A stretch of 41,681 nt of DNA from Jimgerdemannia flammicorona (Eukaryota), in assembly GCA_003990765.1 (NCBI GenBank), contig RBNJ01000104.1, forward strand, positions 1 through 41,681, in the 5' to 3' direction. The notes beneath the pieces are model-generated. The model did not search any database, was not told the origin of the DNA, and saw only the letters and a program-made list of their open reading frames with translations. The translations under genes and the position numbers were made by a program. Positions 2,027 to 39,140 of the stretch are shown here, piece after piece (position 1 is the first letter of the stretch; each line of letters begins with the position of its first letter).

Positions 2027-2139
2027 GTCCTTTAAGACCACTGATACTTGAAAAAATTGAGAAGATTAGCATGGCCCCTGTATAAAGATGACACTATCTT
2101 CCTGAGTAGATAGCCCTATATGGGTAAGTTTTTTTTTTT
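2027..2139 (+). pseudogene. U6: U6 snRNA retrocopy
   Basis: GAGAAGATTAGCATGGCCCCTG (2059-2080) followed by tataaagATGACAC is the U6 core with transitions. Decayed 5' stem gtcctttaagac, 3' T11 tail (2129-2139), 17-bp direct repeats at 2007-2023 and 2140-2156. ACAGAGA box damaged. Confidence 0.88.
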
Positions 2140-2156
2140 GCTAAGAAGGGGAGAGT

Positions 2157-6351: not shown

Positions 6352-6780
6352 TATAAGAGTATATAGTCAAAAACAGAATATATCCAAAATTGGCAAAATT
6401 CTGAATTCTGAAACACATATGTAATTAAAAGAAGTCTATTTCTATTTTTATCTCTAAAGTACTCTAATTACTTAGTAGAGTATTCCAGATACTTCTTGTA
6501 GTTTTGTAGAGGCATTACTAGTATTCTAATAGGTTTGAGAGAATAGAGACCTCTATGTATAAATAGTATAGGATTTGAGTATATAATAAAGGACAGAGTT
6601 GATTTAGATAATCAGAATACATATCCTGAGAATTTATAGATCTAAGAATTATATATACAAGTGAGTAAATTCTTTAGTAAATATATTATAACTACTACAC
6701 ACTTTTTCAGTCTACATCTAGACCAATTATCACTCTTTGACTATTAAGCAATTTCAGTAGAGACTGCCAAATTCCATACA
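6352..6780. mobile_element. Probable solo LTR inserted in the integrase of the minus-strand element
   Basis: Splits the integrase GLL|QSLP motif. Termini TATAAG (TGTAAG-like) and ATACA; flanks caaga / gaaga (imperfect TSD). Confidence 0.55.
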
Positions 6781-12183: not shown

Positions 12184-13775
12184 CTACAATATATTCGCTG
12201 TTAACACCCCATCATAATAGTGCCAACGTAATTGACGTCCACTCTTCTCCACCATCACCGGAATTTTCGCCGTCCTCTCTTCGTCCCACCCGTAAACCAG
12301 CACCTCTACATCATTTGGCCAACCTCCCCGCACCCACGGTTCCCCTTCCTCGACCCACTTAACGGCCTCCTCCATGCCCCAATTCCCCGCGACGCTGAAT
12401 TCAATTCTCCAATTGGACCAGCCGGGTATTTCACAGGGAAGATTCTCGTTGCTTGTAAAAAATGAAAAGAACCGGCCAAGAGCTGAAATCAGCGCCTCAC
12501 CTGGCGGGGCAAGGCAATGAAAGCGCTTCGGGGCCGAGAGAAAGGCCTCCTCGAGGGCATTCTTGCACGAGCCGAGATGCTGCATGCCGTCGATCTGTTG
12601 AGCGATGGAGGCGAGAATTTTTGTGGCTTTGGCAGAGAGTTGTTCGAGGTTGTGAAGGTGGCAGTCAAGCTGGGAAACGAGCGCGGCCTCGAAGACGTCC
12701 AATTCCGAAGTCTCCCGACGCCAGCCAACAACGTGAACGGGAGCTGCCCAGCGGCATGGGTTAAATAACGTGATCTCATCGAGAAGTGGTGATTCCGCGA
12801 GGATGTGGGTAAGGACATCCTCAAGCATCTTTAGATAGTTGGAGCGTTCTGGAGGTCTGTACAAACGGATCCCCACGTCATGAACGCGGAGACGACGGAG
12901 GTATGGGCGGAAGACGTAGGGATAATCAACGATGCTGGAAACACTGCAAGTCTTGGTAGTGTGGTAGAGGCTGGTTGCTACTTCGTTCCTGCGACGTAGA
13001 ATATGTCGAAAGGGTAGAAAACGGTCAAGAGTGAGCGAAGTGAACCCGAAAATTTCCTATATCCCTGCAAAACCTACCATACGCGGTTGACCAATCGCAT
13101 GTGAAGTATAGCGGGTATCAGCGCCATCTTGTCTCCTGAGGCAAACGTCAGTCGGAGGATGTCACGCCACAGCTCAGGAGGCAAGTCGGGCTGATTATTC
13201 ACAATGTGCCCGTCCTCAGATGCTGGCCACGGCGAGGGGGGCGAGTTATCCTTCCTTGTCAGCTTGTAGAAGTCTACCGCGACTTTCTCCATTTCATAGT
13301 AATCCCTGGGCGCAGCGACCACCTCGCCGAGCAGCGGCAGTCCCGACGTCTTGAACAACTGGTCGTAGGGACTGGTTTCCGCGAGTGGCTTACCGTCCGC
13401 GTTGGCGACGCATAGTTTCACGTCCACTCTACCGTCCGGCAATTTTTCGGAAAGCCAGAAGGTTCGGATGGTGTCGTGTCCTGTGGTTTCGATCATGTCG
13501 GGGTGCTGCGACTCGTCACGGTGTGCGCGCCGACAAGTGGGCAACTCAATCGTTTTACCAACACCGATGTCTTTCTCATTGACGAGGGGCCCCAAAGCGT
13601 CGGCGACGTGCGCGAGCCACTCCGGCTCAAAGAGTTGATAGAGTGGGGAGGTCGAGTCGGTGAAGTGGCGGCGGATGTCGCACAGATTTGCCTGCTTGTC
13701 GCATACTTCGAGGTAGGAGAAGGAGGAGGGCGAAGGGCTGACGTATAGGAGGAACGTCATGGGTAGGAGTTCCAT
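12184..13775 (-). CDS. Two-exon gene (13775-13078, 12988-12184), ~500 aa protein with internal F-box-like motif
   Basis: 89-nt GT..AG intron 13077-12989 joins the two track ORFs in frame: LPPELWRDILRL...MRLVNRVW/NEVATSLY. GC/CpG-rich with no internal stops. ATG homologous to the paralog start; an in-frame upstream ATG exists at 13874. Confidence 0.85.
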
Positions 13776-13836
13776 TTTTTGGGTAGATGTCGGAGGAAGG
13801 CAAAAAGAGAAAGAGAATCCGCAGCTGTCAGATGGC

Positions 13837-13853
13837 GAGGACACGTGATTACC
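13837..13853 (-). promoter_or_regulatory. Conserved upstream E-box (RTCACGTG) of paralog 1
   Basis: GAGGACACGTGATTACC matches 19365-19381 at 16/17 while neighbouring non-coding DNA is diverged. Confidence 0.55.
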
Positions 13854-14949
13854 TAAATTATTATTTAACGCCATAACTTAATACTATGCCAGAAACATAC
13901 TTCACCAGGTGTATGTCTAATCCAACAGGACAAGATCATTATGAAGAGAAATATATATATAAAGAGTATATAATGTGGCAACCTTCTCACTGGCTTTGGT
14001 GAATATCCATTATTTTTATTTCCAGAACGTGTAGTAGTTATGACACTTTTACTCTCAAAGCCACACTTGCCTAGTTTGTAATCTCTTAGTAACCTCACCA
14101 TTTAATTATAACCTCACTAGAGGAGTTGGTGAAAATATTTTTATAATTACAATATATCTCTAAATTTGGACGTTTAGAGTTGAGAATAATGTTGATTTTT
14201 TTTTTTTTTGAATAACTATAATTTAATTAGTGATATTATTATTTAATATTTAGAAAAAAGTAGAGCATAACATACTTAATTAAAATAAATATGAAATCTG
14301 ACTTATAAAATAGCTAAATCAATAGTATATTTAAGTTAAAAAAATAAATAAGTTAATAGTTGAAAAACTTAAAAAATAGTAAAGTCAGTAATATATTAAC
14401 TTAGATAATAGTCAAGTTAATAATATACTTATCTTAATCTAAATTCTAATCTATATTTTAATCTCAAAAATAATCAAATTGAAAATATATCAAAATTAAA
14501 AAATAAATCAATAAATAAATATTAAATATAAATATTTGAAATTAAAATTAGAATTAGAAATAAATCAGTAAAATTATATAGAATAAATTAGTAACTTAGA
14601 AATATATTATTTTATTTATTAGTAATTATATAATACTTAATTTTTCTTATTATTTATCTTTTTTTTTATTATTTATCTCATTCTTATTATTTATTTATTT
14701 TTATTTTTATTTTTTTTTACTAAATATATTACTTGATTATTCAATATACTTCTAATAGTTTTAGTATAATTGAGATATTGAATATTAGCTCTAAATATTA
14801 TATAAGAGATGAAATATATTACTATTAGCTATTTAATATATCTAATATTATGGCTTAAGTAATATATATTTAGCAGATAGATATTGTCTCATATTTAAAT
14901 AACTTATTTAAGAGTTCTGGAATTTTTTGATATTTTCTGAGATATAAAT

Positions 14950-17695: not shown

Positions 17696-19324
17696 TTACT
17701 CTAACTCCAAAATCCCTGATAATACCCTATTTATAGATTGCCAACGTAATTGGCGCCCACTCTTTTTCACCCTCGTCGGAAATTTCAATGTCTTCTCCTC
17801 GTCACACCCGCAAACCAGCACCGTTACACCTTTCGGCCATCCTCCCCGCACCCACGGCTCCTCTTCTTCGAACCACCTGTCGGCCTCGTCCATCCCCCAA
17901 TTCGCCGCGATACTGAATACAATTGCCGCCTTAAGCCCACATCGAAGACCCTTGTAGCCTGCAACAAATGTAAAGAGCCGGCCAAGAGCTGAAATCAGCG
18001 CCTCACCTGGCGGGGCAAGGCAGTAGAAGCGCTTTGGGGCCGAGAGAAAGGTCTCCGCAAATGCATCGTTCCACAAGTCGAGTCGCCGGAGGCCATTGGT
18101 CTTTTGAGTGATGGGAATTGTTGTGGTTTTGGCGGCAAGTTCTTCGAGCTGGTGGAGGTGGTAATCGAGCCGGGCGACGAGCGCGGGTTCGAGGAGGTCC
18201 AATTCTGAGACCGCCCGACGCCAGCCAACAACGTGAGAGGGAAAGGCCGGGCAGAATTGGTTAATTAATGTGATCTCATCGAGAAGTGGTGATCCCATGA
18301 GGATGTGGATAAGGCTATCCTCGAGCGTGTTTCGATATATGGGGAGTTCTAGCGACGGGACGGGAGGCTTGTATAAACGGCCCCCCCTGTCATGAACGCG
18401 GAGACGACGGAGGTATGGACGAAAGGCGTTGGGATACTCCACGATGCTGGAAACACTGGAAGTTTCGGCAGTCTGGTAAAGGCTGGTTGCGATTTCGTTC
18501 CTGTGATGCAGATAATGTAGAAACAGTAGGTGTAGGTTAGGAGTGGACAAAGTGAACCATTAATCTTCCCATATCTCTACATTAACCTACCATGTGCGGT
18601 TGACTAATCGCATACAAAGTATGGCCGGTATGAGTCCCGTCCTGTCGCTGGGGGTAACCCCATAGTAAAGGATATCACGCCAAATTTCTGGAGGTAAATC
18701 GAGCTGATTATCTTCGAGAGGTCCGGCCTTTGAGGCGGCCCACAACGAGGAGGGCAAGTGCTCCCTCTTTATAACCGTGAAGACGTTTTTTTCTTCCTTC
18801 TTCAATTCGAAGTAATCCCTGGGCGCAGCGACAACCTCCGGAAGTAGCGGCAGTCCCGACGTCTTGAACAAATGATCGAATGGACTAGTCTCCGGGAGCG
18901 GAGTACCGTCCGTGATGGCGACGCACAATTCTACTCGCACATTGTCGTTCGGTAAATTAGTAGAAAGCCGGAAGGTACGCATGTTGTCAAATATGGAGGT
19001 TTTGATCATGTCAGGGCGCTGCGACTCTCGGTGATCCGAGCCCAGGCAGGCGAGTAGGTCAATCGATTTGCCTATCGGTTTGCTAAAACGGATAAAAGTC
19101 TCCCTGAAGAAGGGTTGCAAAGCATCGGCGGCGCTCGCGAGCCACTTAGGGATAATGAGTTGAAAGAGAGGGGAGGCCGAGTCGGTGAAGTGGCGGCGGA
19201 TGTTATACAGTGTTGCATGCTCGTCGCAAACTATACTGATGTAGGAAACTGAAGGGTATTCAGTGTTGACGTAAAGGCGTGGGAAAGAAATTGGTTTGCG
19301 TGGGAGATGGAATAACAAGGCCAT
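17696..19324 (-). CDS. Two-exon gene (19324-18591, 18500-17696), ~512 aa paralog with internal F-box-like motif
   Basis: 90-nt GT..AG intron 18590-18501 at the same Trp codon: LPPEIWRDILYY...MRLVNRTW/NEIATSLY. Shared blocks with paralog 1 (IRRHFTDS, LFKTSGLPLL, CLAPPGEALISALGR, EPWVRGGWP). Confidence 0.85.
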
Positions 19325-19364
19325 TTTATCGGGTAGATGTCTGCTCCCTTGACAATAAAGTGAG

Positions 19365-19381
19365 GAGGACACGTGACTACC
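19365..19381 (-). promoter_or_regulatory. Conserved upstream E-box (GTCACGTG) of paralog 2
   Basis: GAGGACACGTGACTACC, ~45 bp upstream of ATG 19324. Confidence 0.55.
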
Positions 19382-19454
19382 CGAAAACCAATTAGTAAAA
19401 TTATATTACTGCGCCAGATTCGTCAAGTTTCACTGTTGGACCATCCTCCGCTAG

Positions 19455-19651
19455 CGTTTCATCAACGGCGGCCTCAAGATCAAGGGAAAGAAGAACGTTG
19501 TCACCTCAAATTTTCCTACCCTCTCGTTGATTGGTGTCGACAGCTCCACCAATATCTGGTCCGATAACAAGTTCTACAGCGATAAGACCTATGGCAAGGA
19601 TTACTACGACGGTATGGCGGATATACCCACGCCGGCGATTACGTGAGTATT
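19455..19651 (+). pseudogene. Pectate lyase (PL1-like) exon relic
   Basis: After a TAG acceptor: RFINGGLKIKGKKNVV..LIGVDSSTNIWSDNKFYSDKTYGKDYYDGMAD, then via a 1-nt frameshift THAGDYV. Resembles the fungal pectate lyase segment NVWVDH..SD..GKDYYDGLLDITHGSDWV. GTGAGT at 19643 is a possible donor. Confidence 0.78.
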
Positions 19652-22600
19652 CAGACTGACCTCTCAATTGCGCGAAGCATGTAAATGGCATCACCTTTCC
19701 CTGACATTATTCTTCAACAAAGAATATTTCTGAAGATCTGTTATCAAGATATTTATACATTTACTAAACTATTTTAATATGTAACTTATTTACTGATTAT
19801 TCTGAGTTAATTATATAAGTTTCCTGTGATATATATTGTAGATAAATATGTGGCTTCAAATTCTTTAGTATTTCTGAAATATCTGGTGAGTAATTTTGAT
19901 CTTCACTTAAGATATAACTTATTATAGATATTATAGAGAATATAATTTTATCCATTATTACCTTTCTTCAGTAACATTTAGGTTACACAACCTCTTGACA
20001 ATATTTTCAACACAGTTTCTGGAGAAAAGCTACTAGTATCATGGTAACTGTTGAGTATTCCAAGGTGCATACTGGACAGGGTGGCCCAGGTGCTTTCAAC
20101 TGACAGTATGTGAGGAGGGGCCCTGGCTTAGACAGAAGCATGAGGGGTCTGCTGGCAGGAGAATATGGTAGAAGAGAGGGAAGCACTGGAGGTCAGGGGA
20201 CAGGGAGGGTGAGCTTTGCAGATAAGGTGAAGGGGGGTCAGCAGGAGATAGGGCTGAAGGGCTGGCTTTGGAGAGGCAAGGTGATGGTAAAGACTGCAGA
20301 GCAGTTACTCTAAGGGAGAGTCTCTCTAGGGGGCTGGAGTAGTGGGGCTGGTGGTGCAGGGGCTGAGGAGATAACTGCTGATGGGAGCATAACAGGTGAT
20401 CAGGAGAAAAATCTAGATGAGACTGCTGATATTGGATCAAGTAGTGAGAAAGGCACAAGGCCTAGTGATCTGGCAGATAGTGTAATGGGACTGGTGGTAG
20501 TACTATTACTCAAGAAGTCAATCTCAGAGTTCACAGTCACCTTGTGCTTCTAGGGCTTAATAGTGATAGCAAAAATGGTCCTGGGCTGATTGCTAAGCAG
20601 GTGGCTGGAGCAGTATCTGTAAAGTTCCTAAAGAGACTAAAAGGAGTAGAGGTTGGCTTTAAGGAGGCTAGACCATTAGAGGAGGCACTAAAGACAGAGT
20701 TGACAGTTGGAGAGATGTGTATTCTGATGGTGTGCTACTTGAGGTAGTACTCCAGGATAGTGCAATTGCTAGTGAAGGGGGTACCCACAGTAACTACTGA
20801 GGAGACAAGGAGGAGAGTGGAAGAAGTCATAGCTGAGTATGGTGAGGTGGTCAATATTGGGTTCTGGGTCTGAGAGGGGACCCCATTCAGGACTGAGGAT
20901 ATTGATGTTTGAGTTCAGTTGACAGAGAAGGAGGCTACTGGGAAGGCTAGAGACTGGCCCTCAGTGATGATCTGGGGGACTTTCTTGTATAAGGTGACAA
21001 GGATGAAGAGGAGCAAGGAGGAGGAAGAGAATCTGCTAGAGGTGCTGGAAAAGCTGGGCAGAACTGTGGAGCAGAGGGTGAAGGCTTAAAAGGTGTATGT
21101 CAAGTTGATATATTTGGAAGTAGTAGATAGAAAGAGGATTTAGATGATAAGAGGTGGTGGGAATGATCTCAAGGATGTAAGAGACAGAGAGAGCTATTGG
21201 TGAAACTGAAAAGCAGGGCAAAGAAGGATACTGGTGGCATTGAAATCATGGGGAGAGCCAAGGAGAGTGTCTGGGCTGGCAAGGATAGAGAGAATACAGA
21301 GAAGGGGCCAGGAGGAGAAGAGAAGGCAAAGGGTAATGACCCTTATGTAGATGGTACCTTTGAGGTCTGAGAGCTGTCTCTGACCTCTATACCACTTATT
21401 AGATAAGGTCCAGCTTCAAGGGGCTGGGTGGCAGAAGATGTGCCTATGTGGAGTGTCCAGAGAGTATACTTTGGAGTTCTTAAGATAACAAAGAGTGGGC
21501 AGGTAGTGGTGGTGGATGAGGATGAACTAGTGGATATTCTGGAGGAAGAGGAGAAGTAAGATGAGACAGTGAGCATAGGGGCTGATATCTCTATACTGGA
21601 TAGAGGGTAGCTATTGACTCTTGGGAGGAAGGAGATAGGAAATCTACTATGGATATATAAGATAATAAATAACTTTACAGCAGAGGAGTTGGGGGAGGTG
21701 GACCTGTAAGTGATGAGTGATGAGTATTGGGTATATATCCTATAGGGTAAGAGTGTGGTAGAGGCACTGAAGGCAGAGATTCTTGTAGTTTTCCTGGAGG
21801 AGAAAGGTTATGAGGTTGATAAGAAGAGAGAGGCTAGGCTAGCAGTTGTTGCTGGTGAGAGGGCTGCTTACTGTTGGGCAGAGTGGCATAGGTTGTAGCT
21901 CTGGCAGAAGGCCTGCCTGGAATATTGCAAAGAGTTTAAGAAGAAGGAGGATGGGGAGCTCAAGGAACTTCTGGCTGAATTGGAGGCTAAGCAGACTGTA
22001 GGAGGAGAAAGCTGTGAAACATGATCTGGACCTGACTCAGAATGAGAGGCTCATAGAGCAGTAGAGGATGTATCTACTTTTATACATTATATATTATTTC
22101 TTATGAACAGTACAACCAACTTTTTTTCTTTAAATGTGAATGGGCTAAGGGGTTCATTTTGTTGATGGAACATTTTTGCTGGGCTGAAGAGATTAGAGAC
22201 CAATCTTTTTCTTTTGTAGGATGTCAGATACAAGGATGATTTAGATATACTGGAATAGATAAAGGAATGAGGAGAAGAGGCAGTTTGGAAGGACAAGGTT
22301 GGAATTCTGGTCAGGAAGGGCAGAGGGGAGATATAAGATGTGTAGAACTGGAGAGATAGGCTAGTTTGGGGTAAGTGGATTCAAACTGATCAGGAACCAG
22401 TTACAGTGGGATCCTGCTACTGTCCTGTAGTACAGAGTGAGCATATAGAGTGAGTGAAGAGGCTTCTGGAGGAAGGGCCTCTATTGGGGGCTGGAGTGGA
22501 TGTACTTGGTGAGACTTTAATATAGTCAGAGATGCACTGGCAGATAGAACTGATTGAGGGAGGGGGGTGGTAGGAAGGAGTAGAGGCTTGGAGATATAGG

Positions 22601-23650
22601 AGAAAGTAGAGAGGCTGAGTACATTGGTAGATGTTAGCTGGGAGCTGTAGTGGGACAGAAGGGTGTATACACATTGGGTGAGTGGCCTGGGGTCAAGGAT
22701 TGACTGGATTTTGACAGTGGACTCTGGGGTTTGGATGTTTGGAGATCTCTGGAGGCAGAATGGTATCTATGGTCTGATCATTGGAGACTGCTGGGACAGG
22801 GCCATTTTGGGGGGAGTGGGGATGGGCCAGGTCATTGGTACCTCAACTCTTCCTTGTTAGACAATAAGATACTGATGAGTGGGCTGCAGATATTCAGTGG
22901 AGGGTAGAGGAGTGGATAAGAAAAGGCACCTCAGTTGGAGATAGGTAGATGTGGCTGAAGGAGGCTGCTAGGGGCTATTGGAGAGAGGCAGGTATGGCAG
23001 CTAGAAGATAGAGAAGGAAGAAGAGGTTGTGGGCCTCTACTAGATTGATAAGGCTGTTGGGGGATTGGGCAGGTCTATTGGCTCTGGAGAGGGTAGAGGA
23101 TTGGAGATTACTATGGGTGAGAAAGGAGGTTGTAGAGTTGCAACAGATATTGTGAGTGGAGGATGAAGTATAGGTGCAAAGTATGGCAGTATGTCTATGA
23201 TGGCAGGGGCTGGAGGAAGGAGAGAGGTCCTCTAAGTTTCTCATAAGGGCCCTTCAAGCAAGGAGGATTCAGCAGAGGGGAGAGGGGATTATTGATTTGG
23301 AGGAGATAATAGTATATGATATATAAGACATTCTCAGGTCACAGAAGGAGCAGTGGAGTGGCTTGTGGAGTGAGAAGGAGGGTGGGGCAGAAAATGTCAC
23401 CATTGGCATTGTCTTGGAGAATTGGCAACTACCTCCAGCAGAAGAGCTGGGTGACCTGGTGATGCTGGTGCTAGAGAAGGAGATTTATCAGGTTCTTGCT
23501 ATGACTGTACTAGGTATAGCACCAGGTGAGGATGGCCTGCCCTGGGCTTTCTGGAAGAAGATGGTGAGCATCTCTGGTATGCTGGAGGAGCTGAGAGCTC
23601 TCTGTAATTTGGTACTGCAGTCTGGGAGATGAATAGGGGAGCAGAATCTG

Positions 23651-25680
23651 TATAAGCACACAATCTCCAAGCTACTGAAATCACATATGACCTCTGAACA
23701 AATCTTCAAATCACCTGCAAGATCACAAAGCTGAGTCAAACTGAAGTCACAGTATTCAAAGCTAAGTTAACTCAAAGTCATGAAATATAAGATTCACACA
23801 AACAGAATCTTACTAATCAGGACCAAATGTATATATATTGAGCACTAAGATGCATTGAAACAGAGAACCAAAACAAACCAAATAAACAATTCCAACTTCT
23901 GAACATATACAAACATGACTACTGAGATCTACAACTACATCCATACTGACATTTAGAATGTTATTGCCAATCGAGCCACACCCCCTCTACCCCTTATGAA
24001 TATCCATAGCTTAGCACCCCTCTACTTTGTAGAAGTCTGATGGAATGCCCTGAACATGCTTAGCAAAGCCCACCAAATTGGACAAATCTCAAGCTATCAC
24101 CAGATTGGCTGCCTTCTAGAAGATATGTCAAATACTACCATGATACAGATATTACTCAGATGTCTCAACACCAGAAACTCATTGCCTGCAAACATTGAGA
24201 ACTCTTCTACAAGTATAGCACTGTTATTTCTTGCCTCTGAGTTACTACTACTAAAATAATCACTACTCTGTCCTATGGCCAAATAGATGATATGATATAA
24301 GAACTCAACCACAAGTACCTCAAGTATATTCAGACCACAGACAGAACCTTCTCACACCCCAATAACTATATCCTGCAGATGCCCCAAGTCAGATATACCA
24401 TGAAGGATGTCTACAATATAATCTGATTTAATGAAGATGAAGCAGAAGACAATGATCTCTCTGATACTGATATAACCTCCAGCCAAGGATCCCTACTGAC
24501 CCTGATCACTCCACCAATCTTGCTGATGAACTTACAATAGTTTATAATCACCTACAAGACTTATTGGGACAATGACCACTGGCACAAGTACCAACTCACA
24601 TTTACTCCCAATTATTTCAACTACAATGAAGAGACTGGAGAATACAATCTGTACCTCCAGACAACTCTCAAGATCAAACTGATAACTCTGCTATCTGAGT
24701 ATGAGCAACATGAACTATAGCCACCAGCTTACTACAACTCAGCAACTCATAGTGTCATAACTTATAGAAGGTATACAGATAGTAATTCTGATGAAAGCAA
24801 AGATAATATACCCCTCCTTCACCCACCTACATCTTATCTAGCATATGAGACAGATGATGCTATTCTGTAAGATGGTGATGAAGTCTCAATATATTATTAC
24901 CTTAGTGAAAAGGAGAATTAATCCATGAATAACTCTTTCTAGATAACTACTTTATCAGAGATGATATCATCAATAGTGATGTCATTGAAGACTACTCAGA
25001 CAGCATCCAAATCTATAGATAGCTTAGCAGTCATAGTATAGTTAGATTAGTCTTATATGACATGATTGTGAACTGACTCAGCAGTCAGATGATCTCTTGA
25101 TATATTTGATCACACTTATACTATATGACTGCATTTCAACTCAGCAAAGTACTAAGTACTATATCCATATTCAGCATAGCCCTCACTAGTATAAATATCC
25201 CCTCCTCCAGACCTCAGAATCTCAGACTCAAACATATAAGAACATTTCTGAACACTTTTCCACAATATCCCTTCACACAACTACTTCTAGTATACATAGT
25301 AATATCATGAATAGTAAATAAATCTATATAATAACCCACAAACCACTCTTAAGTAAATCCACTCCCTATTAGGTCTCACTCTTAACCCTGTTACAAAATT
25401 TCCTAATTGGGTATTGTCTTCAGCAATATACCAATTCAACTAAGCTGGTCTTAGTTTCTTAAACTTCTAGAAATATGGAAAATTCTGAACATCCAGAACT
25501 AGTCCAAATAAGGACTTTGGTTGAAACAACAACCCAATCTTAAAATCAATAAGCATAGAGGATGTACTCCATATAAAATTGATCTTGATCTTAAGAAAAT
25601 AGTCTTCCAGAATATCCAGAACTTCTAAAAAACCCTTCCAGAACTATGTAATAGTTATCTTAACAAGTAACCCTCTTAAA
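23651..25680 (+). repeat. 5' LTR (~2.03 kb)
   Basis: Direct repeat of 32237-34301; TATAAG...CTTAAA (TGTAAG...CTTACA mutated). Confidence 0.93.
23915..24921 (+). pseudogene. LTR-internal ORF, ~335 codons, unknown product (second copy ~32527-33538)
   Basis: MTTEIYNYI...EDMVEHHHDTDII...YKTYWDNDHW...YYYLSEKEN*. Most stops and all indels differ between the two LTR copies, so the consensus is nearly open. Confidence 0.7.
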
Positions 25681-25683
25681 ACT

Positions 25684-25695
25684 TAGTAGCAGTAG
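25684..25695 (+). other. Primer-binding site, initiator tRNA-Met-like
   Basis: TAGTAGCAG 3 nt after the LTR equals TGGTAGCAG with one G>A. Confidence 0.6.
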
Positions 25696-27704
25696 TTTAC
25701 AATCCAATTCTACTTTAAGATGCTTCTTTACCCTACTACAAATACCTCTGAGAATTCCTATAAGTTGGAATTAAGCCCAACCTCTGAAATGGAATTTATT
25801 CTAAACTATCTACAATCTGGAGAGAATTGATGACATATAAGGACAATTTGATCTCCATACCTACAATAAGTGGGACAAACTTCATTTAAAGATAGAAGTA
25901 CTCCAGTTAAATCAGCAGATAGATAAAACCCTATATACAAAACTCCTTATACTACACTCAGTAAGTCAAGATGAAGAAGGTCTTATAGAAGCCTTCTTTA
26001 CTCTTCTCAACAAGAGTTTTGTCAGCTCCACAAATCCAAGTGATCTAGGATAACCAGCAGTGGTCTTTCTAGCCTTAGTTCCTCATGAAGCCCAAGTCTC
26101 TATAGTCAAGTGGCTCAACTCTACCAACTTTCACTGTACCAATACCAAGACTACATTATATTATAAATTTCAGAACAGCAAGGCCTGCCATATTCTTAAG
26201 AAAGAAGTAAGAGAAACTCTTCATCAACAACCTGACCCTGAACCAGAAGTAGGTGCAGCTACAGCTCTACCTAAACCCAAAACCAATTCTGAATCAGAAC
26301 TTGACTTTGAATTAAGTTCTTCCAAAATCAGATATACAACTGATTCTGTCTACTTCGACATTGAGTAAACCCAACTATACAGAGACCAAAGCCAAGAGAA
26401 GGAGGAGTATCTCAGTGAATTTGATTCCGGATATACTACTAAAGGAGATATACCTCTATTAGAACAGAACATACCTATATAGCAACAGATAGCTATCTAT
26501 TGAGCCCTCACTCCAGACCCACAACTACTATTTCAGCAACTTACACAGACTCAAAGAACACTCTCACATTCTGCACCAGTATCTCAAGTAGTACCAGTAA
26601 TACTACTACTAACTACTACCAGTAGTTCAACTGCCTCCAGCAAACAATATGGCAAACCAACAGATTCTAGACCTTATAGTCCAAATAGCAACAATAGCAG
26701 CAACCATTACTGCCTTAGCTGAACAGACCTGATCTACCAAAAATCTGAGCCTATCTACCTTCAATAGTACTGCACAAGAAGTCCAAAGCTTCATTAGTAT
26801 AATTGACACTAACTTTGAAGCCAATCAATAGACCAATGAGCAAGTTGCTAACTGCCTTCTGATAAACAATCAAGACCACACTCTGGAACAACTCTTTGCT
26901 ACTACTATAGTCTATATCTGTCAAGTTGTTATATTCTTCCAAGGACCTGCCAAAGAATGGTGGCGAACCCTTTCTGAAAAACCCCTCACATAGGATACCT
27001 GATCTACAGTAATTGCCCAAAATACAGCAAATAATGCCCCAGGATATGGAGCCCATCCTGCAGCTCCTGGACTCTGATTGCTCAATACTGCAGCAAAACC
27101 ATAATTGCCAAATCTTGAGTAAATCTCTGTAACCTCAAATTTGATATATATGGTAAGGAGGAATTTAAAACCTTTGGTACAAAACTCAAGTCACTTCTGA
27201 ATACTATTGGCCTAGGATATATTTCCAATAATGAAGCACAAAATGGTACAAGAGCAGATCATCTATTTGATACACTACCTGAATGGCTTACAAGAAAAAT
27301 CTGAGAATAAGAATGTCCAGTTAGTTGTGATCACCAACAATGGTGCCTAGTAAGAATTAAGACTATGGTTAAGCAAATCCTAACAGCTAGACCAATTCTG
27401 CTCTGAAGACAATTTAATAATAAGGAAAAGACTTGGACTAAGAAAGAAGAACCCAAATATGAAACATCCTGAGCTCTCTCAACATCCACCTCATAGACAC
27501 TCAGAAATCATAAACCCACCCAGTCAAGTACTTTTAAGAAACTTACTGAAGGAGAAAGAAATGAACTTTGAAGAAGTAGAGCATGCTTCTATTACTGAAA
27601 GACAGGATATATAGCCAGTGCCTGCTCCAACCAAAAACTCCAAACAGCAATATGAGCAACTGTTACTACTCTGCACCACCTCAATAACCTGACTACCAGA
27701 ATAC

Positions 27705-28110
27705 TAGACTTTGTCAATTTAAGTCAAACTACCAAGGCCCCAACTAAAGAAAGTCAAAAGGCAGCTGGATATGACCTGTATGCAGCCAAAGAAGCTATAG
27801 TTTCCAACTGAGAAGTCAAGCAAGTCTATCTAAGAATCAGCATCCAAATCTCTGAAGGATATATTGGAAGAATATGCTGTTACAGCAGCCTAGCATTGAA
27901 AGGACTCTCAGTAGAAGGAGGAGTTATTGATGAATATTATACAGGTGAAATTATTGTCTTCATCTGAAACCATAGTTGGATACTCTTCAAGATCTCCATT
28001 GGTTTCTGTATTGCCCAGATCCTATTTGAAAAAATCAAATCAATCCTAATAGTCAAGGAAGTCTCTGAACTACTACCTACCATCTGAGGATCTAAAGGAT
28101 TTAGCTTATC
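27705..28110 (+). pseudogene. Retrotransposon dUTPase domain between Gag zinc knuckle and protease
   Basis: KAPTKESQKAAGYDLY, GYIGRIC.YSSLA, GGVIDEYYTGEI, IAQILF, GSKGFSLS correspond to trimeric dUTPase motifs 1-5. Confidence 0.9.
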
Positions 28111-31100
28111 AAACAAGGCCCCAGCCCAACTTACCATGAGCAAAGAAGAATAATTCTACAAGAAAATTGAAAATAGATATGTATCCAGTAGCTGATACCC
28201 CTATGGTATTGGAATGTACTCTTTCTGAATGATTGATGATTGCTTCTCTTGTATCAATAAACTGGCTCAAAGAAGAACCAATAGAAGGAAAGCTCCTACA
28301 ATCAAAATTACCACCATTGGATCAGACAAACTACTCACACTTCAAGCTTTTGTCAACAGAGCACCTGTCAAGATTATGATAGACAGTGGTGCCTCAGGCA
28401 ACTTCATCAATGAAGAAACAGCCAACAGACTCAAGGTCCTGACATCTCTGGTACAACAAACTCAAGCAGTTGTTACAGCTAATGGAATCTCTCATGTTAT
28501 TAGCAAGGAAGTCCACAACCTGCCCTTCTGAATTGGTGACTACTAAGTACATATTACTCTGCAAATTATATCACTTCTTGACAATGAAATCATTCTTGGA
28601 ACCTTATGATTGAAACAAGAGAACCCCATGATTGATTGGGTAAACCATTCTCTGATCATTAAGAAAGGATGCCACAATTTCAAACTTCAAGGTGAAAAAG
28701 ACCCACTCAGCTCTAGTGACTCTGGAGCAAAGATCACCTATATCAACAAGCTATAGCTTAAGAAATTGGCCAAGAAATACCCTCTCTTTGCCATCTCCAT
28801 CCACCCATTCAAAGGAGAACCTGAGAACTCTGAAGAAGACTTTTTGAAAGTTGACAGCTGTGTTAGACCTCTACTTTAGAAATTCCGAGACATATTCCTG
28901 AAGAAACTCCCAAAAGGCCTACCTCCTAAATGAGCAGTTGACCACACCATCAAGACCATTCCAGATGCCAAGCCAGCCTTTAAGTCAATCTACCACATGT
29001 CTTCAAGAGAAATCAATATACTCAAGAAGGAAATTGATGAACTTCTAGAATAAGGATTCATTAGATCTAGTATATCACCCTATGGTACACCAGTCCTCTT
29101 TGTTGTAAAGAAAGGAGAAGACCTACAAATATATATTGATTACCATGACCTCAATGAACAGACTATCAAGAACTGTTGCCCACTACTCAGAATTGATGAA
29201 ATATTCAATAGGCTTACCAACCTGTAATTTATGAGCTCTTTTGACCTGCAAAATAGTTACTGGAAAATTGCCATGAAAAAAGAAGACATCTACAAGACAG
29301 CCTTCTGAACTTACTATGGATACTTTGAGTTCCTGGTTATGCCCTTTGGCTTAACTAATGCTCTAGCAATCTTCCAGACCCTGATGAATACTATTCTGTA
29401 CTTATATTTGAACAAATTTGTTGTTGTTTATATTGATGACATACTAGTCTTCAGTAAAACCCTGGAGGAACATCTTAAACACCTTGAACTAGTACTACTA
29501 AAACTCCAAGAAAACCAACTCTTTGTAAAACTCTGCAAATATGAATTTCTTCTAAAGGAAATTCAATTTCTTGAACTCATTGTTATACTGAATGAAATTA
29601 AAGTAGACTTTAGAAAAATCTCTGCAATCAAGGATTGGCCCAGACACAAGAAGCTGAAAGACCTCTAGTTATTCCTGGGATTAGCAAACTATTATAGTCG
29701 ATTTGTTGTCAACTTTACCAAAATTGCTACTGCCCTTATCTAAATAACCAAGTATAATAAGAAAGAAGAACAGTCCTGGACCATGAAATAAGAAAAAGAC
29801 TTCAACAATCTTGTAAATTGGAGACCTGAACAAGATACAGCCTTTCAAGCACTAAAGGATGCCTTAATAACCACTCCAGTACTCAAGTAGCAAACCCTGC
29901 CCTACTATATAAAGTTACTACTAATACCTCTGACCTAGCCCTTAGAGCAGTGCTCATACAAGAAGGACACTCTGTGGTCTATCATTCTCATAAGTTCAAT
30001 AATGCTGAAATCAACTACATAACTTATGAGAAGGAAATGTTAGCTATTATAGATACTCTGATCAAATAGTGACTATACTTAAAAGGAGCACACTTTACTA
30101 TATTAACTGATCACAAGACATTAGTCAATATCAAGACTCAGGCTACCCTTTCCCAAAAGCAAGCCAGATGGATGAAAGTCCTTGCCAACTTTGACTATGA
30201 AATCCAGTACTGCCCTAGCAAGGAAAATATTGTTACTGATGCAATCTCCAGACCACTAATTGAAGAAGTTATCCAAACCCTCATCTTGGTTACAAACTCT
30301 ATCATGAAATAAATTATTACAGCATGCACTGATAATAAAGAAGCTCAAGTACTCTGAGAAATTCTGAGCAGTAACAATGCTGACAAGTATATGTACTCAG
30401 TATCATCAATACCAACAAAAGGACAATACTATCTACTACAAGGACAGATTATATATTCCAAACAACTGAGACCTCCAAAGAACTATCCTATTTGAATGTT
30501 ATGATGCTCCTACAGCCAGACATTTAGGATTTGATAAGTACTATGAAGTTATTTCCCAAAACTTCTATTGACCCCATATGGCAGATCAGCTAAAGATCTA
30601 CATCACTTCCTCTGATGCCTGCCAATGTAATAAGTCCTCAACACTAGCAAAACCTGGCCTACTCCACCCCATCCCAGCACCATCTGCTAATTGGGAACAA
30701 ATTTCTATAGACTTTATTGTACAACTATCCTGGACCAAGAATGGGAAAGATGCAATTATTGTCTTTATAGACTATCTCAGCAAACAAGCCCACTTTGTGC
30801 CAACTACTACTACTGCAACAGCACCAGACATAGTCACACTCTTGTTTAATAACATATTCCACTATCATGGTCTTCCTAAAATCATTATTAGTAACCAAGA
30901 TCTGAAATTCATCAGTCATTTTTGGAAAACCCTCCATGCATACCTTGAAACAAAACTTGCACTATCCACAGCCTTTTACCTTGAAACTGATGACCAAACT
31001 GAAAGAATGAACTGAACTCTGGAATAAATGCTAAGGAAGTATATTTCCTACAGATAAGATGATTGGTATGAATACCTCACAACAGTTGAGTTTGCCTATA

Positions 31101-32236
31101 ACAATAGCAAGCAAACCTCTCTTAGAATGACTCCATTCTTTGCTAATATAGGACAAAATCCAAACACCCCTCTGACACTTATCTGAACTACTAATGAATG
31201 CTCCACAGTCAAGCTGTTGAAGAATTCCTGCTCCAAATGTGTAATCTAAGCCAGATCACAATCAAGAATTTATCATGAGCTCAAGAATAATAGTTATAGT
31301 ATGTCAATCAACACCACTGAGAAGAAACTTTCAATATCAGAGAAAAAGTTCTACTAGACTTCTGAGGATACCAAGTTGACAATCTCAAGCACAGACTATC
31401 TACAAAGCTGAACAGCAAGTTTATTAGACTACAATAAAAAAAATAAAAAAAAGCAAGTTTATTTCAACATTTGAATTTATTGCACAAGTCTCTCCTACTT
31501 TCTACAAATTGGTGCTACTAGACACCATTAAGATATACCCAGTCTTTAATGTCTAATATCTTAAGCAATATAATGAAAATGATGATAAGCTATTCCCAAA
31601 CTGAACCACAGAACCATCTGTATCTGTCATTATTAATGACCAAGAAAAATATGAAGTTGAATGAATCCTCAACAAACATAGCCACAAGAACCATCCTGAG
31701 TACCTTGTCAAATAGAAGGTTACCCAATCCATGATACAACCTGGGAACCCAAGACCAATCTCCAGAATGCTACCAACTTAGTTTAGAAATATGATTTCTT
31801 AAACAACTAAAACCAAATACTCAGCACCTATTAGTATATACTATATATTACTCTCCTAAATATTATAATTATCATGAACAAAATCAAGAACTCAGCAAGT
31901 CAAGACAAAAGAATACTGACCCTCTGGAAAAATAGCAAAACTGAAAGCAAGCCTATTCTCTCTATCCACTAGTGGGAAATGAGGTGTAGAAATTTAAGAA
32001 GATTCCTTAGAGAAAATTTTTCAGCAGTGAATTGTCAGAATTATTTCCAGTATATAGCATTGAACACATGACCATTTAATGTGTGAATTTAATGCATTAG
32101 GCAACTGTACTATGAGCATATCACTTTCTGAGAAAAATAGACTTTACTGGACTTTTGACCATCCAAATAGTATAATAACACTAGAACAAAATTAGAAGGT
32201 CCCAATGAGGATATCAAAAGCTAAGAAGAGGAGAGT

Positions 32237-34301
32237 TGTAAGCACATAACCTCTAAGCCACTGAATCACACATCACTCTCTAAACAAGCTACCAAAATCA
32301 TACATGATCCCTGAACAAATCTGGAAATTATCTACAAGATTACAAAGCTAAGTCAAACCAAAGTCACAGTACACAAAGCTGAGTCAAAGTCATGAAACAC
32401 AAGATTCATATAAATAGAATCTTACAAATTAGGACCAAATGCATATATACTGAGTACTGAGATACATTGAAACAGAGAACCAAAACAAACCAAACAAATA
32501 ATTCCAACTCCTGAATATATACAAACATAATCACTGAGATCTACAACTACATCTGTGCTGACATTTGGAATACCATTGTCAACTGAGCCACACCTTCTCT
32601 GCCCCTTATGAATATCTATAGCTTAGCACCCCTCTACTTCATAGAAGCCCAATAGAATGCCCTGAACATACTTAGCAAAGTTCACCAAATCAGACAAATC
32701 TTAAGCTATGACCAGATCAGCCACCTCCTAGAAGATATGGTTGAACACCATCATGATACAGATATTATCCAGATATCTCAATATCAGAAACTCATTGCCC
32801 ACAAACATCAAGAACTCTTCTACAAGCATAGTACTGTTATTCCCTGTCTCCAAGTTACTACTGCTGAAATGGTCACTACTCTGTCCTATAGCCAAATAGA
32901 TGATATGATACAAGAACTCAACCACAAGTACCTTGAGTATGTTCAGACCACAGACAGAACCTTCTCATACCCCAATGATCATATCCTGCAGATATCTCAA
33001 GTCAGATATACCATAAAGGATATCTATAATATAATCTGATTTGATGAAGATAAAGCAGAAGACAATGATCTCTCTGATGCCAACATGACCTCTAGCTAAG
33101 GATCCCTACTGACCCTGATCACTCTACAAATCTTGCCAATGAACTTATGTATAATAGTTCATAACCACCTACAAGACTTATTGGGACAATGACCACTGGT
33201 ATGAGTATCAATCTACATTTACTCCCAATTATTTCAACTACAATGAAGAGACTGGAGAATATGGTCTGTATCTCCAGACAACTCTCAAGATCAAATCAAC
33301 AACTCTGCTACCCAAATATGAGCAACATGAACTACAGCCACCAGCTTACTACAATCTAGCAACTCATAGTGCCATAACTTATAGAAGGTATGCAGACAGT
33401 GAATCTGATGAAAGCAAAGATAATCACCCCTTCTTTGCTCACCAATATCTTATCCAGCATATGAGACAGATGATACTATTCTGTGGGATGGTGATAAAGT
33501 TCCAATATATTATTATCTCAGCAAACAAGGAGAATTAATCTGCAAACAACTCTTTCTAAATGACTACTTCATCAGAGATGATGTCATCAATAGTGATGTT
33601 ATTGGAGACTACTCAGATAGCATCTAAATCTATAGATAGCTTAGCAGTCATTGTATAGTTAGATTAGCCTTGTATGATGTAACTGTTAACTAACTCAGCA
33701 GTCAGACAATCCCCTGATATCAGATCACACTTGTACTATATGACTGAATTCTGACTCAGCAAAGTACTAAGTACTACACCTATATTCAGTATAGCCTAGA
33801 TAGCCCCTCACTAGTATAAATATTCCCTCCCCCAGACCTCAGAATCTCAGACTCAAACATATAAGAACATTTCTGAATACTTCCCCACAACATCTCTTTA
33901 CACAACTACTCCTAGTATAGCAATATCATAAATAGTAAATAAACCTATTTAATAATCCACAAACCACTCTTAAGTAAATCTGCTCTCCATTAGGTCCCCC
34001 TCCTAACCCTATCATGAAATTTCCTAAATGGGTATTGTCTGTAGCAATATATCAATTCAACTAAGCTGGTCTTAGTTTCTTAAACTTTCTAAAATATGGA
34101 AAATCCTGAACATCCAGAACTAGTCCAAATAAGGACTTTGGTTGAAACAACAACTCAATCTTGAAATCAATAAGTATAGAGGATGTACTCTATACAAAAT
34201 TAATCTTGACCTTAAGAAAACAGTCTTCCAGAATATCCAGAACTTCCAGAAAACTCTTCCAGAACTACATAATGGTTACCTTAATAAGTAACTCTCTTAC
34301 A
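32237..34301 (+). repeat. 3' LTR (~2.07 kb)
   Basis: Preceded by PPT aagaagaggagag; TGTAAG...CTTACA 6-bp inverted termini. Confidence 0.95.
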
Positions 34302-36794
34302 ATCTGGGGCTGGTGATACTGCTGTATAAGAACAAGGGCAGGAGAGAGGATTGAAAGAACTGGAGACTGATCATACTACTGGACATAGACTGGAAGTTGA
34401 TAACTAAGGTGATAATAGTGAGGTTGCAGAAGGTGGCCCATCAGATCTTGGGGGCAGAGCAGTGGGGCTTTGTTGAAGGCAGACTTATTCAAAATGGTAC
34501 AGCTTGGGTATATAGTATTATTGAAGGGGCTTGGGCCTGTAGATTGGATGGGTGCCTGATCTTTTTGGATCAGGAGAAGGCATATGACTATATTCAGAGG
34601 GTCTGATTGGTAAAGGTACTGGACAGAATTAGAGTTCCTCAATAGTTCTGAGTGGCAATAGTCAGCCTACTGGAAGAGAGTAAGGCTGTACTCATATATA
34701 ATAGGCATAAAGGGGTGGCTTTTCCTCTGGGTAGAGGTGTGCCTCAGGGGGACCTGTGTCTCCCATTTTGTATGCACTCTCTTTAGAGCCCTTAATGGAT
34801 AGGATTTGGTAGAAGATAAGAGGACTTTTGATTTATAGTATTGAGTAGAAAGTTGGTGCTTTTGTAGATGATATGGTGGTTGGCCTGGATTTGATTGCTA
34901 ATATTGAGGAACTCAAGGAGACTGTAAAGTAGTATGAGATATACTCTGGGGCTAAACTCAATTGGCACAAGTATGAAATAATAGTGTTGGGTAATGGTCT
35001 GGTGGGGGGGGGATGTCATTGGAACAATTGTCTCTGCTGGGGAAGTAATGAGGTACTTGGGCATTTATCTGTTAGTATATGAGTCCATTCTTCTAAGACT
35101 CTGGTGGGAGCAGCAGGTGGTTATCTGGGGGGAGGTCTTGCAGAGCTGGAGAGACTACTACCTGTCTCTGGTGGGGTGTGTTTCCATCTTGAATACTTAC
35201 TGACTGCTGAAGTTATAGTATCTGATATATCATCTGGACTTTCTGATCTGAGTGGTAAAGAGATTGATGAATCTGGCCAAGGAGTGGATCTGGGCAGGGA
35301 GGAGGAGTCAGATTAGCTGGGAAATTCTGTCCTTACCACTGACTAGAGGGACTTAGGCTGGTTGACTTCCTGAAGAAGTTACACTCTGAAAACATGATGG
35401 CTGAAGAGAGCTATTGAGCTGGGGGACAGTAGCTGGGTTTCTCTATTGGAGAAGGTCTGGGAGATAAGGTCCTCTCTGAGAGGTTCTACAGGAGACCTTC
35501 TATCTTTGGTTGGACTTTAAAACAATGAGCACATGCAGTTTAGGGACTTCTGGTGGAGAGTCACTGATGGAGTACACTGCATTGTCATTTATTGGCAGAG
35601 AGATGAGGGAGAAAGACCTTGGCACCTGATAATGTAAAGATGGAACCAAGTGTTGCTGGGGGGCATTCCCCTAGGTGACTTTGATATTAGTGATGGGGTT
35701 GAGTGTCAGAGGGAGTTGGGGCAGGATCTGTGGCCCAGTAGATAGCAGTTAGTGGGTATTGGTAAAGAGTGAGATTGAAATAGGATCTGGAACTAGAGTG
35801 CTGAGGTTCAGTAGTAGCTACCACTGAAGTATTGGGTAGTCTGATGGTAAATGTTAAGAAGAAATATCATGCTCAACTTTTACTCTGGCCATCTGGTGGA
35901 AGGGGAATCCTTTGACTGTGAGAAGTACTATAATGTTGGGCAGGAAGGAGGCTTAGTACAGATATCTGAACATTGACTTAGAGAGTGTAAAGTGCTTAAT
36001 AACTTCTGGATAGCAGTTGGAGAGAGGTTGGGTGTCATACAGAAGAGAGATGGTATGAGGGGTCAGTGGGAGGATCTATGGGACAGATTGGTGAGAGAAA
36101 TTGGGATAGAGTAGCTTACTTTAGAGTGGATGCTAGCTATATAGATAGGGTTGGTAGGTTACTGGCTGTATGTATTTGAGGATAGGAGATGGATGTGCTT
36201 AGAGGCATGACTGTTGTAGTGAGAAGGGCTGATGGTAGATACTCTGATGGATTGGTGACTGAGGTGGGGACTACAGGGGGATTGGTAGTATCATTTGGTG
36301 AAGATATGTGGACAGAATGAGGAGAGGGTTGGGGTTGTGGGAGACAGGGTAATTTTTAAGCATGAAGGGGTAGAAGGGAGAGGGGGGCTCCCCTATAGGG
36401 ATTGGGTAGTAGGAAGAGATTATGTAAATTTATATATAGACTGATAATAAATGGCAAAGTCTGAGTGATTATAAAAAAAAAAAAATATATATATATATAT
36501 AATTTTATCTATACTATAAACTAAGAGATATTTATTATTCATCCAATCTGATATATAATATGAGCTAAGGTAGTATATATCTATTATTATTTATAATTTA
36601 AGCTAGATTTAATTTATATTTTATATTTATTTATTAATTTTTATTAAATTTTAAATTTTATAAAAAGTTTATTTCTATATATAATATTATGTTATTATAA
36701 GAAAATATTATATTTATTAACTATTTTAATATTCTTTATTATATATAATATTTAAAATATTTTATTAAAAATATATAAACTTAATAATATATAT

Positions 36795-37283
36795 TATAAT
36801 AGTTAATATAAATTAGAAACATTAATTAGAAAAATAGATATTTGATCATAGTACCTGAATCTGATTCCCAAATATAGTATAGACTTACAAATAGCTGTCA
36901 TTTTATAAATGAAGAAACTTTAACAAATGTTAAGATTTTATAAATATCAAGATTTAATAGATATTGAATTTTGACAATTATTAAAATTTCACAGATATTA
37001 AGAATTCATACTTGTGAAAAATGATATATAGAAACTATGGTTATAACATAGCCACCTATAGCTAGCAAACTTATATAAATATTTCCAGTATCTAGAGTAA
37101 ATAAATTTTAGATCAAAATAGTTCAAAGTAAAGAAAAAGTAAGAGAACTAGTAAGTCTGTAGATAGATATACTTTAAACTCACACTCTTATACTCTAAGA
37201 ACTCTATGTGAGTCAGAATATAATCAAGTTTCAAGATACAGAAATCTGCTATACTTCTAAGATCTGACTTCTACTATATTATA
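36795..37283 (+). repeat. 5' LTR of a third LTR family, followed by a PBS remnant
   Basis: AT-shifted copy of 40372-40858; followed by acttagtatc (TGGTATC-like). Confidence 0.75.
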
Positions 37284-37359
37284 ACTTAGTATCTATTAGT
37301 TAATAATTTAAGATAAATTCCTCAATTTTAAGCTAAATTATGAATAACTGCTTTTATTT

Positions 37360-39140
37360 ACAGTGTCTAATATCCCCAATGTTCCTCTTTCTCTTCTGAA
37401 CTAGAATACCCACTCTACTCTTCTATACTACCACATCTCTCCATTCTCTTATCAAATTTAGTATATTTAATTTCTCATTATATTCTACATTCTATAGCAA
37501 GAACAGTCTATATCCAGTTATCTCAGTCATCAGATACTATACTATCTCCTATAACTCATTGATATTTAGAAAAAAAATATTAGTTATATGATTCATATTG
37601 AATAAAGTTTATAGTAAAATATTCTAATCTATAATTACATACTCACTCTATTACTAGCTATATCTAAGTTCCTCTCAGCCTTAAGTTAAGCTACCTCTTT
37701 CTGCTGAGTATCCAGAACTATTAGTACCTCTAGACAGTCCTCTCTATCCTGGATCTCCATAGATGTTCTGTATTCCTCACACACCATTTACAATTTGGCC
37801 AATCTCTTCTTCACATCCTATAGATAAGCTATCTGCTTATTAGTAATCTCCAACAGTACTGCCACTCTATTCCTATCAACCTTGTACTCCTCTTTCTCCA
37901 GGAGAGCTACCATTAACTCATCTTATAGCTTGTATACTATTTCTTTATCATATAATATCTCCCCAATATACCTCATTGATAATATAGAAATCAACCCCTC
38001 AACTCATTAGCTACAATATTTATCAGTACCTTCTACAGTTACTTCTTACTTTCAACCATCTCTAACCTTAAGCTTCCCCCTCCTACTGCTAGGACTCTAT
38101 ACAGGATTTGAGTCTCTTCTTCCATCACTACATTCTCAGCCAATATACTCTATCTATGATTCCCACTCTCCTCCAGACCTCTCTCTTGTAACATTACTAT
38201 CTCTCTCACCCAGGCACTAGCTCTCAATCTATCTATCTTAGTGGTTTCCACTCTTTGTGCCTCTCCTTCATACTGGCCAACAAATCCTTCTATTGCTATC
38301 TTTCCTATACTCTCTCCCAAGCAGCTCAGTCTATAAACTCTCTTGCTATTGATAATCTCCACTACTGTCTTAGTCTTATATTTCTTCTAAGCCAGCTATC
38401 TCTTCTCTACTACTCCTGCCAAATTCTCTAGTACCTCTAGTAAGTCATTCTATCCCTCAGGTGACTCTTTTCCCCTTGACACCATATACTCCACTGGTCC
38501 CCACTTTGATACTATTAGCTAGTTCCTCTTGTTCTCTATGTTCTCCTTCTCTGATAGCTACATCTAAATATCTATATTACTTATTCAGAACTCTATACCC
38601 TTTCAGATCCAAAACCCAATATTTATAACATCTTTATACTCCTTGACTGTATCAATTATCAGCTTTTTGGTCTCTTTCTTCTTCACTATAGGAATATTGG
38701 TAACTATCAGCTGAATCACTTGAGGGTTCTAGCATAGACACCTTATATAGATACTATTATAACTCTGACTATCACCCTCTTCTTCAGTGCTACTAATATC
38801 AGATCCTCTTCCTCAAACTCCACCTCAACTCCCTCAAATCTCTTCAGAAACTTCACCCAGACTGCCTCTTTCACTTTCTGTACCAGAAGCTCCAGAACCA
38901 GTCTAACTATAACAGCTAAGTATCAGAAGTATAGAGTGAAAATAAATTTGGACACTAATTTCTTAAGTAATAATACTACTATTATTTCTGTTATACTATC
39001 AGGCAGATTCTCAGGCCTCATGCTACCTTTTAATTCAAACTCTCCCTCAACTATTACATCTGGATTTTTTTTCCAGATTAGCAATCACTCTCTTATCAAT
39101 AGTTCTCCCAACTACTATTTCTCTAGTTCTGTTATCATCA
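37360..39140 (-). mobile_element. LINE ORF1 fragment related to the 19959 family
   Basis: Minus strand AVWVKFLKRFEGVEVEFEE (~38810-38870) matches AVSVKFLKRLKGVEVGFKE at ~20610. Confidence 0.75.

Follow-up and report, generated by a model that had tools for sequence, protein, structure and literature searches.

A predicted 369-codon gene within both long terminal repeats of a decayed chromovirus

We report that each long terminal repeat (LTR) of a degraded Ty3/gypsy chromovirus contains a frame of 369 codons in sense orientation, located at 23915-25022 in the 5' LTR and at 32527-33639 in the 3' LTR of the window, the stretch of 41,681 nt that was analyzed as a whole. The frame matches two proteins, P0007 and P0008, and on the strength of these matches it is read as a real coding sequence. 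Both copies of the gene in the window are dead, so that nothing there is expressible. As the best explanation of the data we propose, giving it about an even chance, that a genuine protein-coding gene resides in the U3 region of the LTR of this chromovirus family as an accessory gene.

The element was recognized as a single LTR retrotransposon occupying 23649-34301 on the plus strand, on which all the features described below for it also lie. The LTR ends were read by eye and place the 5' LTR at 23649-25680 (2032 nt, beginning with TGTA) and the 3' LTR at 32237-34301 (2065 nt, ending in TACA where the 5' LTR has TAAA as its last bases). A blastn comparison of one LTR with the other aligned 23648-25681 with 32261-34302 at 85.7% identity over 2056 columns. 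Near the 5' end of the 3' LTR (32237-32300) there is a tandem duplication of about 28 nt that the 5' LTR lacks. The primer-binding site (25683-25695) lies 2 nt past the 5' LTR and presumably resembles the initiator-Met tRNA type, and a polypurine tract (32223-32235) precedes the 3' LTR. Both element ends are flanked by a target-site duplication, AATC at 23645-23648 and ATC at 34301 or 34302-34304. One contig of run X1, a soil metagenome used in the form of contigs (word share 0.08), joins 23644 to 34301; this is a single contig with 30 letters on its shorter side, and the join is weakly consistent with an unoccupied target site.

Pfam searches on the read-through translation of the element interior returned an aspartic protease (28328-28636), a reverse transcriptase (29138-29572), an RNase H (29842-30192), an integrase with its H2C2 zinc domain and core (30467-30955) and a Tf2-type SH3 domain (SH3_Tf2-1). 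A dUTPase domain (27734-28108; PF00692, E 6.6e-26) was located in the polyprotein frame within the gag/protease interval, and a degraded CCHC-like zinc knuckle of gag (27584-27625) was read by eye, with no Pfam match. The chromodomain (31632-31810) is split by a frameshift near 31718 into two halves with E values of 0.003 and 1.2e-4 and scores of 17.9 and 22.4 bits, both below the Pfam cut-off of 25.1. The domain order is protease, reverse transcriptase, RNase H and integrase, with the chromodomain C-terminal of the integrase, and a TG..CA pair of LTRs, a primer-binding site and a polypurine tract are present. Since the dUTPase, protease, reverse transcriptase, RNase H, integrase, SH3 and split chromodomain matches occur together, we assign the element to the chromoviruses, with the dUTPase as an additional domain. 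The first-pass annotation of this DNA had called it a chromovirus with unusually long LTRs bearing a sense ORF; the pol and SH3_Tf2-1 matches, together with the two sub-cut-off chromodomain halves, agree with the former, and the LTRs of about 2.03 kb with one sense frame each agree with the latter. The dUTPase domain represents a second accessory feature of the chromovirus that bears the LTR gene. The clusters nearest to a reverse transcriptase fragment in the Atlas were generic reverse transcriptase clusters of 2-7 records each, labelled mostly Streptophyta.

The surroundings of the element are heterogeneous in composition, with blocks of 17-30% GC adjoining genes of 51-54% GC. Two tandem paralogous genes on the minus strand (12184-13877 and 17696-19405) form islands of 51-54% GC separated by AT-rich DNA of 17-29% GC; each consists of two adjacent long frames (267 and 290 aa, and 272 and 287 aa) that are 51-60% identical between the paralogs, and Pfam assigned no family to either gene. 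A second degraded gypsy-type element, also on the minus strand (5849-9698), is more distant, its DNA being 58-63% identical to parts of the main pol. The insertion-site DNA (20000-23648 and 34302-37000) shows a G-over-C skew of +0.24 to +0.53 on the plus strand, the element-adjacent segments 23000-23793 and 34513-34900 are multi-copy in run X1, and a Pfam search of the minus-strand read-through translation of the flanks (19400-23649 and 34302-38500) gave no match. This insertion-site DNA probably belongs to another repeat family, oriented on the minus strand.

In the 5' LTR the frame extends from an ATG at 23915 to a TAG at 25020-25022, with 10 premature stops and one nucleotide missing at both 24126 and 24909. 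The 3' copy has ATA as its start codon, 7 premature stops, four extra nucleotides at 33146-33149 and one nucleotide missing at 33424. The LTR alignment bears out the 1-bp deletion at about 24126 and the 4-bp insertion at about 33148 that the first-pass annotation had described, the extra nucleotides of the latter being 33146-33149. The product had been given there as about 335 aa (23915..24921) and has to be extended to 369 codons, because the two further single-nucleotide indels, at 24909 in the 5' copy and at 33424 in the 3' copy, carry the frame on to the TAG at 25020-25022. The premature stops occupy 15 positions across both copies, each of them one or two transitions away from a sense codon, and 13 of the 15 are sense in the other copy, as in TAG/TGG at codon 14 and TAA/CAA at codon 129. 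The proposal that stops complement between the copies thus stands for these 13 positions and fails at codon 171 (TGA, 24424/33037) and codon 209 (TAG, 24538/33155); as these two stops are common to both copies, the two-copy reading is not fully open.

The two LTRs are about 86% alike and differ by 268 substitutions, 242 transitions and 26 transversions, and by 32 gap columns, with C/T and G/A changes falling evenly on both copies. CpG sites are altered in at least one copy in 59 of 60 cases, and the altered share is 33-39% for CpA, 14-37% for CpC and 2-3% for CpT. The classical RIP indices are met only in part, with a TpA/ApT ratio of 0.92 and a (CpA+TpG)/(ApC+GpT) ratio of 1.3. Copies in run X1 differ from the window mainly by T>C (380) and A>G (225). 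We call this decay RIP-like, a repeat-directed C-to-T process. A plant-like CHG pattern was considered and rejected because CTG shows no excess. Taken with the canonical chromodomain and with the alternation of 17-30% GC blocks and genes of 51-54% GC, the decay makes it likely that the host is a fungus. The dinucleotide context is unusual for RIP, with CpG near saturation, CpA and CpC intermediate and CpT almost absent, and LTRs of 2 kb are long enough to be mutation targets on their own.

To read the frame through this decay, the transitions between the two LTR copies were reversed by script. The resulting transition-undone frame has 369 codons from the ATG at 23915 to the TAG at 25020-25022 and two stops left, its whole span being 373 codon positions; the remaining five frames yield no more than 78 aa. 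Among 2000 shuffles that preserved the composition, none attained 373 codon positions with two stops or fewer, and 16 attained the longest stop-free run of 174 codons. A search of 5.8 billion proteins with the longest piece of the 5' copy, stops being written as X, gave P0007 (247 aa, ENA) as the sole match with an E value of 3.1e-73, and a protein search with the N-terminal piece of the 3' copy gave P0008 (128 aa, JGI) as the sole match with an E value of 1.5e-52. P0008 begins with the Met of the frame and runs off its contig, and P0007 covers codons 119 to 365 approximately, is open across its 247 codons, has Gln at both shared stops and aligns with two in-frame gaps only. Identity to P0008 is 88.3% for the transition-undone reading and 74-79% for the raw copies; for P0007 the corresponding values are 64.4% and 54-58%. 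The undone reading is nearer to both proteins than the raw copies are, and undoing the transitions therefore recovers real ancestry.

In a drift simulation limited to substitutions, some 1% of 4000 trials ended with 247 codons still open at an amino-acid identity of about 64%. The conservation between the window reading and P0007 spans the Tyr/Trp-rich blocks, beyond the helical part of the protein, which favors a constrained protein over filler. Part of the openness of P0007 and P0008 may come from ascertainment, since only open frames become database proteins. Both are singleton clusters on short contigs (998 nt for P0007 and 1180 nt for P0008), and the LTR residence of the gene is known from this window alone. 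In run X1, contigs from many diverged copies together span the entire element, the gene region included: 6152 pieces fell on a stretch of 11.9 kb, 401 of them at least 99% alike and 1760 below 90%. Two X1 contigs lack the four extra nucleotides at 33148, and six have a base at 33424. Scans of JGI metagenome contigs with N-terminal and C-terminal alignments gave 298 and 275 pattern matches respectively, and no relative was confirmed among them.

The predicted protein consists of 369 residues with a pI of 4.65. Its N-terminal 170 residues are near neutral, and its C-terminal 197 residues have a pI of 4.05, contain 15% Tyr/Trp/Phe and 7.6% Pro, and lack Cys. The hydrophobic spans of the protein are all too short for a membrane segment. 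AF2 predicted five helices for the N-terminal 128 aa at low confidence (mean pLDDT 48.2), and its fold model of P0007 is unreliable (mean pLDDT 32.9). The ESM Atlas model of P0007 (pLDDT 0.39) gave no usable feature match, with structure rows at a TM of at most 0.30. Pfam found no family in the pieces of the frame, PDB sequence profiles gave nothing below E 0.13, and phmmer with P0007 against 1.84 billion representative proteins retrieved P0007 itself alone, all of which accords with the earlier remark that the product has no recognizable domain. Shorter fragments of P0007 were also looked for and none was found. The best PDB profile match, IL-10 receptor beta at E 0.13, was taken as noise.

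The frame begins 266 nt from the LTR start and stops 168 nt short of a conserved TATAAATA (25190-25197), the presumed core promoter, which is kept at 33815. A presumed poly(A) signal, AATAAA, follows at 25317-25322 and is kept at 33938. A related truncated copy of the element has TATAAA in its LTR (2157-3667) and AATAAA at 3304, so TATA and AATAAA are kept in three of three LTRs. A TATATA-type motif (23830-23837) lies 78-85 nt ahead of the ATG, recurs at 32444 and hence occurs in both gene-bearing LTRs; it is a candidate promoter of the gene. The frame was assigned to U3 because it lies upstream of the conserved TATA. The promoter, the poly(A) site and the U3/R border are guesses from motifs: the border would fall about 30 nt downstream of TATAAATA, and if TATAAATA is the core promoter and AATAAA the poly(A) signal, the gene would lie wholly inside a U3 of about 1.55 kb.

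The truncated relative (1-3667, cut by the window edge) is 77% identical to the main element over 317-1861 and has an internal deletion of about 2.7 kb. Its LTR at 2157-3667 on the plus strand matches the main LTR only over some 40 nt at its 5' end and over the final 740 nt or so. This shared 3' part (24952-25680 in the main 5' LTR against 2925-3667) is about 82-85% identical; besides roughly the last 23 gene codons it contains the TATA box, the poly(A) signal and U5. Between the shared parts, a middle of 730 nt is unrelated to the gene-bearing block of 1.26 kb. The homology breaks are sharp, at about 23688 and at 24952 (2925 in the relative), the latter 70 nt before the stop of the gene. Sharp breaks around unrelated middles indicate that the gene-bearing block is a swappable U3 module. 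The pattern fits either a gain of the gene by the main subfamily or its loss from the other, and an LTR that lacks most of the gene means that the element does not need it in cis and may have acquired it recently. A frame of 98 aa in the LTR of the relative (2754-3050) was examined as a gene and taken as chance; it is out of frame with the C-terminal tail that the LTRs share, and Pfam returned no match for it.

The sharp breaks and the unrelated 730-nt middle of the relative also suit the possibility that the frame is a passenger, coding DNA of a host gene or of another mobile element that replaced the variable U3 through recombination or gene conversion and does the element no service, its relatives being open because the capture is young. 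Segment swaps of this kind in U3 are documented in the account of the crapaud subfamilies, a fungal chromovirus of Podospora (PMC10787394), and have been proposed for wheat LTRs in the relevant part of PMC11302176. Against it, at 64% identity P0007 still has 247 open codons and gaps that keep the frame, an outcome reached in about 1% of the drift trials, no donor gene appeared among the 1.84 billion representatives, and the segment resembles the element in base composition and strand skew and not the nearby genes of 51-54% GC. We regard such a passenger as possible, if on balance unlikely.

A nested remnant of a different transposable element, inserted in the LTR before the family amplified, would likewise account for a discrete block of 1.26 kb that a related LTR lacks, and yet it appears very improbable. 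The block edges show neither terminal inverted repeats nor flanking direct repeats, Pfam gave no match of transposase, reverse transcriptase or integrase type, the window holds no further copy outside the two LTRs, and the last 23 codons or so with the stop sit in the LTR part shared with the truncated relative; a search for tandem arrays in the gene segment found none that mark a nested element. An unrelated nested element, which the first-pass annotation had named as the case that would overturn its reading, accordingly finds no support in terminal repeats, a flanking duplication or a transposase-like match. That there is no gene at all, and that the frame arose by chance from an A/C-rich, G-poor strand and the bias of undoing transitions, is hardly credible. 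Reversing C-to-T and G-to-A changes does strip stops by construction, and 16 of the 2000 shuffles did reach 174 stop-free codons, but none reached 373 codon positions without exceeding two stops, and two independent proteins align along the frame (E 3e-73 and 1.5e-52).

The explanation that we favor, an accessory gene resident in U3, has consequences for how the gene would be copied and expressed. Each retrotransposition would copy it to both ends of the element, and it would be kept by selection on the element family without being needed in cis for transposition. In the order of the full-length RNA the gene would sit in the sense strand after pol, a spacer of 410 nt and the polypurine tract. 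There it would be found solely at the extreme 3' end, over 6 kb away from the cap, and for this reason it may be expressed on its own. A separate transcript could start at the TATATA some 80 nt ahead of the start codon and end at the AATAAA of the LTR itself; such an mRNA, about 1.45 kb long, could be produced from every LTR, even a solo one. It is a tentative and rather unlikely extension that each LTR is a self-contained cassette of promoter, 369-codon orphan gene and poly(A) site, with every insertion or solo LTR contributing one more expressed gene for a factor acting in trans to boost the family or protect it. More doubtful still, and offered as a speculative guess, the protein might be a trans-acting regulator of the expression or silencing of the family, with a tail resembling an activation domain.

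Extra genes of LTR retrotransposons usually lie between gag-pol and the LTRs, and to our knowledge LTR-resident accessory genes occur only in a few retroviruses. The sag gene of MMTV, which encodes a superantigen within the U3 region of this betaretrovirus, is expressed from spliced or internal-promoter mRNAs. Like the frame described here, it is a sense gene of about 320-370 codons within U3 that occurs in both LTRs when integrated and that the genomic RNA has at its 3' end alone; the two differ in that they have no sequence similarity and that the present case involves no membrane anchor, a non-animal host and no env. The nef frames of HIV/SIV and the bel/bet frames of foamy viruses extend into U3. 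Their products, like that proposed here, are accessory and non-structural, and their coding sequences at the 3' end overlap the LTR; unlike the window frame, which would lie wholly in U3, 266 nt from the LTR edge, they begin upstream of the LTR. A relationship to sag or nef was looked for, and there was no Pfam match and no PDB sequence match below E 0.13.

Among elements of fungi and plants, Boty-like (BcGypsy1) elements of Botrytis cinerea possess an extra gene, brtn (Zhao et al. 2011, as cited in PMC8365987). According to the description in PMC8365987, brtn is likewise an orphan extra gene of a fungal Ty3/gypsy element that genome annotation missed, and differs in being antisense and in not being placed in the LTR, the window frame lying on the gag-pol sense strand. 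The rice elements Retrosat2, RIRE3 and RIRE8, as characterized in the pertinent part of PMC3485330, are also gypsy elements, have LTRs longer than 3 kb and a fast-evolving orphan, ORF0, found in close relatives only; in contrast to the gene reported here, ORF0 belongs to plant elements and is located outside the LTR, in the internal region upstream of gag-pol. The LTR variants of crapaud, as presented in PMC10787394, share the sequence from the TATA box onward and differ by replacement of a whole U3 segment, as do the two LTR types of the window, but their variable U3 is shorter than 200 nt and non-coding, compared with the protein-encoding 1.26 kb found here. A dUTPase domain in the polyprotein is recorded for fungal chromoviruses of Postia, Phanerochaete and Tuber (Tmt1) in the corresponding passage of PMC2864245; the likeness concerns the element and not the LTR gene, since that passage describes no LTR gene for them. 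A search of open-access full text for a retrotransposon ORF in, within or inside an LTR returned no report, and this literature agrees with the earlier comment that U3 genes are not known in fungal gypsy elements.

A conserved gene wholly within U3 would change the view of what an LTR is. Such a gene would double the gene dose per element, would leave solo LTRs as coding units and would lengthen the LTR enough to make it by itself a substrate for repeat-directed mutation, as the decay observed here shows. Segment swapping in U3, which in fungal chromoviruses has been described for short non-coding pieces, can, as it appears from the two LTR types, move a whole gene. The gene belongs to an orphan family with two relatives among billions of predicted proteins, and its function would be new information.
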